Below are positions 33,581 through 64,000 of a stretch of DNA of 64,000 nt, one piece after another. The notes under the pieces are model-generated. The model had not been told where the DNA came from and searched no databases. It saw nothing but the letters and a program-made list of their open reading frames with translations. Every line of letters begins with the position of its first letter. The first letter of the stretch is position 1. The translations under genes and the position numbers were made by a program. The stretch comes from Escherichia coli (lineage in GTDB: Bacteria; Pseudomonadota; Gammaproteobacteria; Enterobacterales; Enterobacteriaceae): assembly GCF_044324875.1 (NCBI RefSeq), contig NZ_CP172185.1; one strand, 5' to 3'.

Positions 33581-33718
33581 CAACGTGCGCTTTGTTGACG
33601 CCGGATGCGGCGTGAATTCCTTATCCGGTCTACAAAATTTGCAAATCCAAAGCATTACATTAAGACATGGCCTGATAAACATATCGCATCAGGCCATTTT
33701 CGTTAGCTATTGTCCACG

Positions 33719-52114: not shown

Positions 52115-52210
52115 TATTGTGATCGGTAAGCCGGATAAGGCGCTCGCGCCGCATCCGGCAACGATGCCGACAGCCTGATGCGACGCTGACCGCGTCTTAT
52201 CAGGCTTCCC
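52115..52210. repeat. REP/BIME-type extragenic palindromic element
   Basis: GCCGGATAAGGCGC...GCATCCGGCA and GCCTGATGCGACGCTG...CTTATCAGGC motifs. Confidence 0.6.
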
Positions 52211-59999: not shown

Positions 60000-60100
60000 C
60001 CAGTGCCGGATACGGCGTAAACGCCTTATCCGGCCGACAAATGCGCTCCCCGTAGGTCGGATAAGACGCGTCAGCGTCGCATCCGACACCCGAACCACGA
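60000..60100. repeat. REP element between phnK and phnL
   Basis: GCCGGATACGGCGTAAACGCCTTATCCGGCC and GTCGGATAAGACGCGTCAGCGTCGCATCCGACA. Confidence 0.6.
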
Positions 60101-62901: not shown

Positions 62902-63660
62902 ATGAGCCTGACCCTCACACTTACTGGCACTGGCGGCGCACAGGGCGTTCCCGCATGGGGCTGTGAGTGCGCGGCCTGCGCCAGAGCGCGGCGCTCACCG
63001 CAGTATCGCCGCCAGCCATGCAGCGGCGTCGTGAAGTTTAACGACGCGATCACCCTGATCGACGCCGGGCTGCACGATCTCGCCGATCGCTGGTCGCCCG
63101 GATCGTTCCAGCAGTTTTTGCTGACGCACTACCATATGGATCACGTGCAGGGGCTGTTTCCGCTGCGCTGGGGCGTGGGCGATTCGATCCCGGTCTACGG
63201 CCCGCCGGATGAACAGGGCTGCGACGATCTGTTTAAACATCCGGGCCTGCTTGATTTCAGCCACACGGTGGAACCGTTTGTAGTGTTTGATTTGCAGGGA
63301 TTACAGGTCACGCCGCTGCCGCTCAATCATTCGAAACTCACTTTCGGCTATTTACTGGAAACGGCACATAGCCGGGTGGCGTGGCTGTCTGACACCGCAG
63401 GCCTGCCGGAAAAAACGCTGAAATTTTTACGCAATAATCAGCCACAGGTAATGGTGATTGATTGCAGCCACCCACCGCGCGAGGATGCACCGCGTAATCA
63501 CTGTGATTTAAATACCGTGCTTGCGCTGAATCAGGTTATCCGCTCGCCACGGGTGATTCTGACCCATATCAGCCACCAGTTTGATGCGTGGCTGATGGAA
63601 AACGCACTGCCGTCGGGGTTTGAGGCGGGGTTTGATGGGATGGAGATTGGGGTGGCGTGA
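62902..63660 (+). CDS. phnP: Metallo-beta-lactamase-fold phosphodiesterase PhnP
   Basis: 252 aa with HxHxDH motif ([10 protein letters not shown]). Confidence 0.95.
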
Positions 63661-63682
63661 TGGGAGGGAATGTGCGCGCTGG

Positions 63683-63795
63683 CCCCCTCACCCTAACCCT
63701 CTCCCCAGAGGGGCGAGGGGACCGATTGTGCTCGATATTGAATATTGCGCTGGTTTTCTCCCTCGCCCCATTGGGGAGAGGGCCGGGGTGAGAGG
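63683..63795. repeat. Long imperfect palindrome (intergenic repeat element) downstream of phnP
   Basis: CCCTCTCCCCAGAGGGGCGAGGGGA ... TCCCTCGCCCCATTGGGGAGAGGG, flanked by CCCCTCACCC / GGGGTGAGAGG. Confidence 0.6.
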
Positions 63796-63818
63796 CGATG
63801 CCTGCTCCATACCCAACA

Positions 63819-64000
63819 TCAACGCCCATACTCATCTTCCATTCTCCGCTCTTCATCTTCTAGCTGCCGACGCTCCTGATCCAGCTGGCGCTGGCGATCG
63901 TCCAGCTGCCTGCGGCGATCTTCAAACTGGCGGCGGCGATCGTCATATTGTCTGCGCCGATCGTCGTTCACTTCACGCTGCCAGCCGTCGTCGCGCGAAT
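63819..64000 (-). CDS. yjdP: YjdP, 3' part only; repeat-rich R/Q/D/E protein
   Basis: Manual reverse-strand translation ...DDRRRQYDDRRRQFEDRRRQLDDRQRQLDQERRQLEDEERRMEDEYGR*. Confidence 0.75.
   Translation of the reverse strand, partial: SRDDGWQREVNDDRRRQYDDRRRQFEDRRRQLDDRQRQLDQERRQLEDEERRMEDEYGR

Follow-up and report, generated by a model that had tools for sequence, protein, structure and literature searches.

A nearly intact head-to-head pair of BoxC repeats between phnP and yjdP of Escherichia coli and its decayed alleles

BoxC elements were, reportedly, reviewed by Bachellier et al. in 1999 alongside other palindromic repeats of enterobacteria. The same repeat has been described under several other names: it is the potential intrastrand triplex (PIT) element of Hoyne and Maher (Hoyne et al., 2000; Hoyne and Maher, 2002; both as presented in PMC4666352) and the TMECO triplex motif, CCCTCNCCC N3-6 GGGNGAGGG N3 GGGNGAGGG (Holder et al., 2015; PMC4666352), and Kaplan et al. 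(2016; PMC5100583) gave these sequences yet other names, HPG1 for type A and HPG2 for type B. The isolated G-rich strand of TMECO forms a stable triplex in vitro and a duplex when the complementary strand is present, and TMECO oligonucleotides cause polymerase stops in vitro; in vivo DMS footprinting, however, showed no protection, so that the triplex went undetected (PMC4666352). Inverted pairs of a type A and a type B unit occur at five sites in K-12, the genes flanking TMECO copies show no functional or positional pattern, and local variability is raised at TMECO loci, which also show partial deletions described as a “palindrome effect” (PMC4666352). Kaplan et al. interpreted the family as a switch between G-quadruplex, hairpin and duplex, and they also observed pairs on opposite strands and a T-rich stretch before HPG2 (PMC5100583).

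The repeat family, the pairing of A and B units, the in vitro structures, the link with instability and also the phnP-yjdP site in K-12 are already known. Kaplan et al. (2016; PMC5100583) enter the latter as HPGQ 51, of class HPG1, with distances of 24 nt to phnP and 101 nt to yjdP, and it is a solo unit in the TMECO catalogue (see below). An initial sequence-only reading of the DNA studied here had suggested that the long palindrome at this site could belong to a repeat family other than REP; the family is not a new one but BoxC/PIT/TMECO/HPG1-HPG2, and the locus appears in two published catalogues.

The window, i.e., the whole 64-kb stretch of E. coli DNA that was analyzed, contains the 3′ ends of phnP and yjdP close to its own end. 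These genes converge, as had been proposed (phnP ends at 63660 on the plus strand, yjdP at 63819 on the minus strand), and are separated by an intergenic gap of 158 nt. The stop codon of phnP (TGA) occupies 63658-63660 and the palindrome begins 23 nt beyond it, while the stop codon of yjdP at 63819-63821 likewise lies 23 nt from the palindrome. Across a 551-nt query covering the locus, the closest complete genome is that of E. coli PCN033 (99.6% identity). The features discussed below are:

62902..63660, plus strand: phnP, the final gene of the phn (carbon-phosphorus lyase) operon, from the ORF list and RefSeq orthologous regions.
63669..63683, no strand: outer (3′) flank of unit A, AATGTGCGCGCTGGC, coming within 8 nt of the phnP stop.
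63684..63719, minus strand: unit A, BoxC/TMECO type A “mm” with loop 2 = TTA, reading CCCTCGCCCC-TCT-GGGGAGAGGG-TTA-GGGTGAGGGG.
63720..63759, no strand: spacer of 40 nt joining the units head-to-head, its ends being conserved 5′ unit flanks.
63760..63795, plus strand: unit B, BoxC/TMECO type B with loop 2 = CCG, reading CCCTCGCCCC-ATT-GGGGAGAGGG-CCG-GGGTGAGAGG.
63819..64000, minus strand: 3′ part of yjdP, encoding a DDRRRQL repeat protein and running off the end of the window, from RefSeq (PCN033, K-12) and a partial ORF.

Both gene ends carry repeats of their own. The 3′ half of yjdP (63855-63965, minus strand) contains direct repeats (ATCGTCCAGCTGCC... and CGATCGTC) with a 21-nt period and a spacing of 21 or 42 nt, which encode DDRRRQ(L/F/Y) heptads; the product is now called “DDRRRQL repeat protein YjdP” in RefSeq. 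The 3′ end of phnP and the sequence just beyond it (63614-63669) contain G-rich direct repeats (CGGGGTTTGAGGCG / CGGGGTTTGATGGG, and GGGGTGGCGTGATGGGAGGGA) that resemble the third block of BoxC, GGGGTGAGGGG; in the allele of strain ABU83972 the phnP stop lies within ...GGCGTGAGGGAAAATACCCGCGCCGGCC..., which is similar to the third block of BoxC and to the spacer between the units at ygfF-gcvP in K-12. Judged by this resemblance, the G-rich repeats at the end of phnP may be the remnant of a further BoxC unit overlapping the gene.

The palindrome between the two stop codons is real and well beyond what is expected by chance. A repeat search revealed an inverted repeat of 36 nt per arm (63684-63719 / 63760-63795) that is 83% complementary with 40 nt between the arms, so that the imperfect palindrome spans positions 63684-63795, i.e., 112 nt. 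The sequence-only reading had correctly noted a long imperfect palindrome in the gap and described two nested inverted repeats. Both of these, CCCTCTCCCCA (63697-63707) with TGGGGAGAGGG (63772-63782) and GAGGGGCGAGGGGA (63708-63721) with TCCCTCGCCCC (63759-63769), lie at the coordinates it gave, but there are three nested pairs rather than two, the outermost being CCCCTCACCC (63684-63693) with GGGGTGAGAGG (63785-63795). Because of this additional outer pair the potential hairpin measures about 112 nt instead of the estimated 90 nt or so. The center was rightly described as AT-rich, although only mildly so (42-43% G+C versus 50.5% over the whole window), and it comprises 37-40 nt and not 35 nt. 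Fold prediction, which the same reading had proposed as a check, yielded hairpins that are far more stable than those of shuffled sequences in RNA as well as in single-stranded DNA: -85.6 kcal/mol for RNA of the plus strand (63670-63810; z = -7.2), -82.7 kcal/mol for RNA of the minus strand (63670-63810; z = -7.3), and -36.4 kcal/mol for ssDNA (63684-63795; z = -6.9), with in each case 0 out of 200 shuffles performing as well.

On the basis of its sequence, the element is a head-to-head inverted BoxC pair: the type A unit occupies the minus strand, its type B partner the plus strand, and a 40-nt spacer joins them. Unit A exactly matches the TMECO consensus at 63685-63719 on the minus strand, where 0 matches are expected in shuffles of the window. 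Its 36 nt (CCCTCGCCCCTCTGGGGAGAGGGTTAGGGTGAGGGG) are identical to No. 22 in Table 1 of the TMECO catalogue, MG1655 4314285-4314320 (PMC4666352), which falls in the phnP-yjdP gap of K-12 and is orthologous to unit A. Blocks 1 and 2 of unit A form 9 out of 10 Watson-Crick pairs, block 3 forms allowed purine-motif triads with block 2 at 10 out of 10 positions, and the unit represents the sole canonical G-quadruplex motif in the 64-kb window. Unit B is slightly degenerate: it has an A at 63793 where the consensus and PCN033 have a G. Consequently, it fails the strict TMECO pattern but matches a fixed-gap consensus with one mismatch (63760-63794, plus strand; 0 expected in shuffles), and the PCN033 orthologue is an exact consensus match. 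Unit B retains 9 out of 10 Watson-Crick pairs and 9 out of 10 triads, and with the loss of its fourth G-tract it has no G-quadruplex motif. For the units in the window, the potential to form a triplex is gauged by these triad counts (10/10 for unit A and 9/10 for unit B), and the in vitro data stem from near-identical oligonucleotides (PMC4666352).

The locus shares with the described BoxC/PIT/TMECO elements the three-block motif (one C-rich block followed by two G-rich ones), the A and B loop variants, the inverted pairing, and a dispersed and strictly intergenic occurrence. A type A (TTA) and a type B (CCG) unit are found on opposite strands, 40 nt apart. When the five K-12 pairs were read again, the pair in the window turned out to be head-to-head like pair 17+18 (lldD-trmL), whereas the other four are tail-to-tail. 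A difference with the BoxC/TMECO catalogue is that the K-12 phnP-yjdP site is entered there as a solo unit, because its B partner has a 12-nt deletion, whereas the strain of the window keeps both units nearly intact. The difference with HPG1/HPG2 is that in the window the G-quadruplex pattern is satisfied by unit A only.

Comparison of the window with other K-12 copies shows that the repeat extends beyond the two units. The ends of the spacer, GACCGATTGTGCTC beside unit A and GCGCTGGTTTTCT beside unit B, recur at other K-12 copies; the sequence conserved 5′ of type A is ...GYGCWC-N-GGTC and that 5′ of type B is ...GCRC-N-TTTTCT. Because these 5′ flanks are conserved across copies, both ends of the 40-nt center belong to the repeat; its middle forms a small AT-rich imperfect palindrome. 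The outer flank of unit A at 63669..63683 is, by inspection, modestly similar to inter-unit or tail sequences of BoxC, as for example at the hrpB-mrcB copy of K-12 (reverse complement), where GAACGTGCGCGCTGAT lies beside CCCTCACCC. Head-to-head composites also occur elsewhere. A second E. coli locus, non-orthologous to phnP-yjdP and adjoining a glycosyltransferase gene, carries an A-spacer-B arrangement whose spacer is homologous in part; this composite, seen in E. coli pMTY18781-3 (1501-1620), lies on the chromosome of 705 genomes. A shorter head-to-head A-spacer-B arrangement is present in Enterobacter hormaechei (601-698) between convergent EamA-family and nepI genes.

To what extent the element is repeated was assessed by a BLAST search of its 125 nt against 5,426 complete E. 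coli genomes. This provided 66,616 places spread over 5,413 of these genomes; the median genome has 13 of them, plasmids account for only 34, and in the listed best-hit genomes RefSeq has no annotated feature under the match. The element is, therefore, dispersed, multi-copy and, with the window copy lying between two stop codons, intergenic; there is no further BoxC copy within the 64-kb window. A 48-nt query from the center, in contrast, gave a single place in each of the 3,156 genomes (out of 5,426) that have it. Because the center is single-copy and the arms are multi-copy, the arms represent the repeat and the spacer is essentially locus-specific. The suggestion that the palindrome could belong to a different repeat family is borne out by these counts. 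Occurrence as a single, unconserved copy, which the sequence-only reading had held to speak against its interpretation, applies to the spacer and not to the arms. When the element was compared with a plasmid collection, matches were obtained in 43 records of Azospirillum, 41 of Sinorhizobium and 8 of Rhizobium; on account of these BLAST matches, BoxC-like motifs occur on alphaproteobacterial megaplasmids or chromids. The TMECO motif is said in the literature to be unassociated with mobile elements; in contrast, No. 3 and No. 4 of the catalogue lie inside the cryptic prophage CP4-6 of K-12 (281900-289480).

Alleles of the locus were retrieved from E. coli genomes with the 551-nt query, and representative ones were aligned and compared among themselves. 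Their lengths are 551, 538-539, 488, 469, 434, 427 and 420 nt, and the aligned representatives are:

PCN033 and the window: both units present, the pair intact.
K-12: unit B lacks 12 nt, lost between GGGG repeats.
XJ34: 63 nt are deleted at a GAGGG microhomology, and what is left forms a perfect hairpin of four blocks.
ERL03-1416: 82 nt are lost between two copies of GAGGGGCGA.
DXMF6-3R: larger deletion.
Strain 2D: only GGTGAGGGG kept.
ABU83972: nothing recognizable.

The largest deletions of the series amount to ca. 124 nt. In DXMF6-3R (253-434), whose deletion is among the larger ones, yjdP contains an internal stop and bears a pseudogene annotation. Junction-specific searches showed the K-12-type junction in 3,022 genomes (2,800 at at least 99% identity), while an intact B unit at this locus occurs in at most 150 of the 5,426 genomes, 63 of them at at least 99% identity. 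About one third of the genomes cover just 72-78% of the 551-nt query. The A at 63793 was found in none of the 5,426 genomes, since the best matches reach 99.2%. The deletions also affect the predicted structure: the ssDNA of the window allele folds at -36.4 kcal/mol (z = -6.9) versus -21 kcal/mol (z = -2.4) for the K-12 allele.

The element is thus dispensable and decays via nested deletions across E. coli, a partial-deletion decay that fits the published “palindrome effect” of BoxC/TMECO loci. A degenerate-pattern scan of contigs for phnP 3′ ends of an outgroup yielded only an unrelated Deltaproteobacteria MAG, and with alleles of E. coli alone the direction of change may also be the opposite: those lacking the element might represent empty sites that are ancestral, and gene conversion, rather than ancestry, might account for the intact B unit. 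The uniformity of the K-12-type allele fits shared ancestry, and selection for that form is also compatible with it.

Two other families of enterobacterial repeats resemble the element in general architecture. Like BoxC, REP elements and BIMEs are short, G+C-rich, palindromic intergenic repeats that often occur as inverted pairs past gene ends, form stem-loops in mRNA and are hotspots of polymorphism; the difference is that their sequence is unrelated to that of BoxC. REPs are connected with the RAYT transposase family and have mRNA-stabilizing, gyrase-binding and IHF-binding roles. To our knowledge, neither such a transposase nor any of these roles is attached to BoxC. The REP consensus GCCGGATGCGGCG...CCGGCCTAC was not matched at 63660-63820, in line with the earlier statement that this is not a standard REP sequence. 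Elsewhere in the window it was matched, with 3 mismatches each, at 33600-33633, 52126-52159 and 60005-60038, which represent ordinary REP elements. ERIC/IRU elements and other MITE-like palindromes of enterobacteria are likewise imperfect palindromes (of ca. 125 bp) in transcribed intergenic regions with presence/absence polymorphism. However, the ERIC core AAGTAAGTGACTGGGGTGAGCG is unmatched in the window at up to 3 mismatches, the BoxC composite is made of two units of the triplex type, and no target-site duplication is seen at phnP-yjdP.

In our opinion the element is best explained, with good though not full confidence, as a structured BoxC pair of selfish or neutral nature that acts as a hotspot of slippage and deletion and has no selected role at this locus. 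This reading is the best supported because most strains by far either lack the element or have it in degenerate form. When single-stranded or supercoiled, the pair would extrude as a 112-nt hairpin or cruciform, and each G-rich strand may, by analogy with the in vitro literature, fold into a purine-motif triplex or a G-quadruplex. Such structures would stall polymerases and bring the internal direct repeats GGGG, GAGGG and GAGGGGCGA together, after which replication slippage would delete parts of the element. We infer the lack of a selected function from the dispensability of the element and from negative published tests, which concerned single and not paired units. The formation of non-B DNA in cells would be a step of this mechanism, but in vivo DMS footprinting did not reveal the triplex (PMC4666352). 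The same G-rich strands, toggling between duplex, hairpin, triplex and G-quadruplex, might instead serve as a regulatory switch that modulates local transcription or replication, a reading advanced by Kaplan et al. (2016; PMC5100583) and in part by Holder et al. (2015; PMC4666352). CD and NMR data do reveal that consensus oligonucleotides fold in vitro as a triplex or as a G-quadruplex/hairpin (PMC4666352; PMC5100583), and unit A possesses the full G-quadruplex motif as well as all ten triads. However, in unit B one triad and the fourth G-tract are lost, the duplex prevails when the complement is present and in vivo DMS was negative (PMC4666352), the flanking genes are patternless in function and position (PMC4666352), and the site is downstream of both genes, outside promoters, so that we regard such a switch as very unlikely here. 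Its position just past two convergent genes would, on the other hand, suit an element that acts on both transcripts, with the stem-loop stopping RNA polymerase or blocking 3′-5′ exonucleases and thereby setting and stabilizing the 3′ ends of the phn and yjdP mRNAs and limiting convergent read-through. REP elements stabilize mRNA 3′ ends and so offer a precedent. The distance of 23 nt to each stop codon, the very stable RNA hairpins on both strands, and the location of many HPG1 copies between convergent genes and nearer to 3′ ends (PMC5100583) agree with this. Yet a terminator/promoter scan detected at the element no terminator-like site or U-tract on either strand, and no promoter either; the tails behind the stem are CGATGCC (plus strand) and GCCAGCG (minus strand), and not the U-run that an intrinsic terminator requires. 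Single PIT units, as far as the work of Hoyne and Maher (2002) is summarized in PMC4666352, acted neither as promoters nor as terminators, were without effect in vivo and left RNA polymerase unaffected, whereas they blocked DNA polymerase in vitro. Moreover, the hairpin is weakened in the commonest allele and the element is missing in about one third of E. coli. phnP and yjdP have no entry in the supplements on Term-seq 3′ ends (PMC7815308) and SMRT-Cappable-seq operons (PMC6131387), a weak argument, since phn is silent unless cells are starved of phosphate. A bidirectional transcript-end element is, on balance, unlikely, and the terminator considered by the sequence-only reading finds no backing in these data. 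Neither does the structured RNA that it mentioned: even at a permissive E-value, the best Rfam 15 match reached 28.8 bits against a gathering threshold of 100, the matches being weak and generic to long hairpins, mostly of miRNA-precursor families. Three 44-codon ORFs cross the element, at 63657-63791 (+), 63688-63822 (-) and 63745-63879 (+), but they were rejected as genes. The first two are near mirror images of each other, as expected for by-products of a palindrome, the common alleles lack 12-124 nt and so break the ORFs, and RefSeq has no annotation under the match in any listed genome; it is, therefore, hardly conceivable that the element encodes a small protein.

An alternative of a different kind is that the whole A-spacer-B composite (ca. 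125-145 bp) was inserted between phnP and yjdP as a MITE-like mobile element, in which case alleles without the element would represent the empty sites of the ancestor, with solo units as products of decay. The halves indeed resemble terminal inverted repeats, copy number varies widely between strains, and the head-to-head composites at the second E. coli locus (705 genomes, partly homologous spacer) and, in shorter form, in Enterobacter hormaechei would agree with mobility. The 12 K-12 units that are listed as solo besides No. 22 were all read over ca. 110 nt on one side and ca. 150 nt on the other, and the “solo” No. 3 has a truncated type A remnant head-to-head upstream, making it a degenerate pair. 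In contrast, nine type A solo units showed no partner remnant over these distances, and the idea that pairs are primary and solos are remnants found no general support, with a remnant at No. 3 only of the 12 K-12 solos. Other pairs in K-12 have a tail-to-tail arrangement and spacers that are unrelated, no transposase is known to go with the BoxC family, and no target-site duplication was evident when filled and empty alleles were aligned. In addition, the “empty” allele of strain 2D is a deletion, because it keeps a fragment of unit B. An insertion of this type is, therefore, rather unlikely, and we are equally hesitant to regard the composite with the inner flanks GACCGATYGAGCAC ... GCGCTGRTTTTCT as the intact, MITE-like form of BoxC of which many solo or degenerate units would be deletion products. 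If it were nevertheless true, nearly intact copies would be few, with the window holding one of them, and the locus would provide a natural series of decay; the composites in Enterobacter hormaechei and at the second E. coli locus would then be a hint that the unit as a whole was once mobile.

If the pair is a selfish or neutral repeat, as we prefer, it may still affect the transcripts of its neighbors. Transcription that continues past phnP or yjdP would yield RNA with a very stable stem-loop, which does not amount to an intrinsic terminator but could passively slow 3′ exonucleases; such a passive effect of the paired form is possible. With the family, the pairing, the structures, the instability and the locus already published, the discovery value of the present case is small. 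For annotation, it implies that none of the 44-codon ORFs across the element merits a gene call. Its interest lies in the strain of the window, which retains a nearly intact pair, a rare state at a site that is decayed in K-12 and in most other strains. The intact form and the deletions of 12, 63, 82 and ca. 124 nt, each at short direct repeats, constitute a natural series of alleles that is usable for models of slippage at structured repeats and for studying the effects of the paired form on phn and yjdP transcripts.
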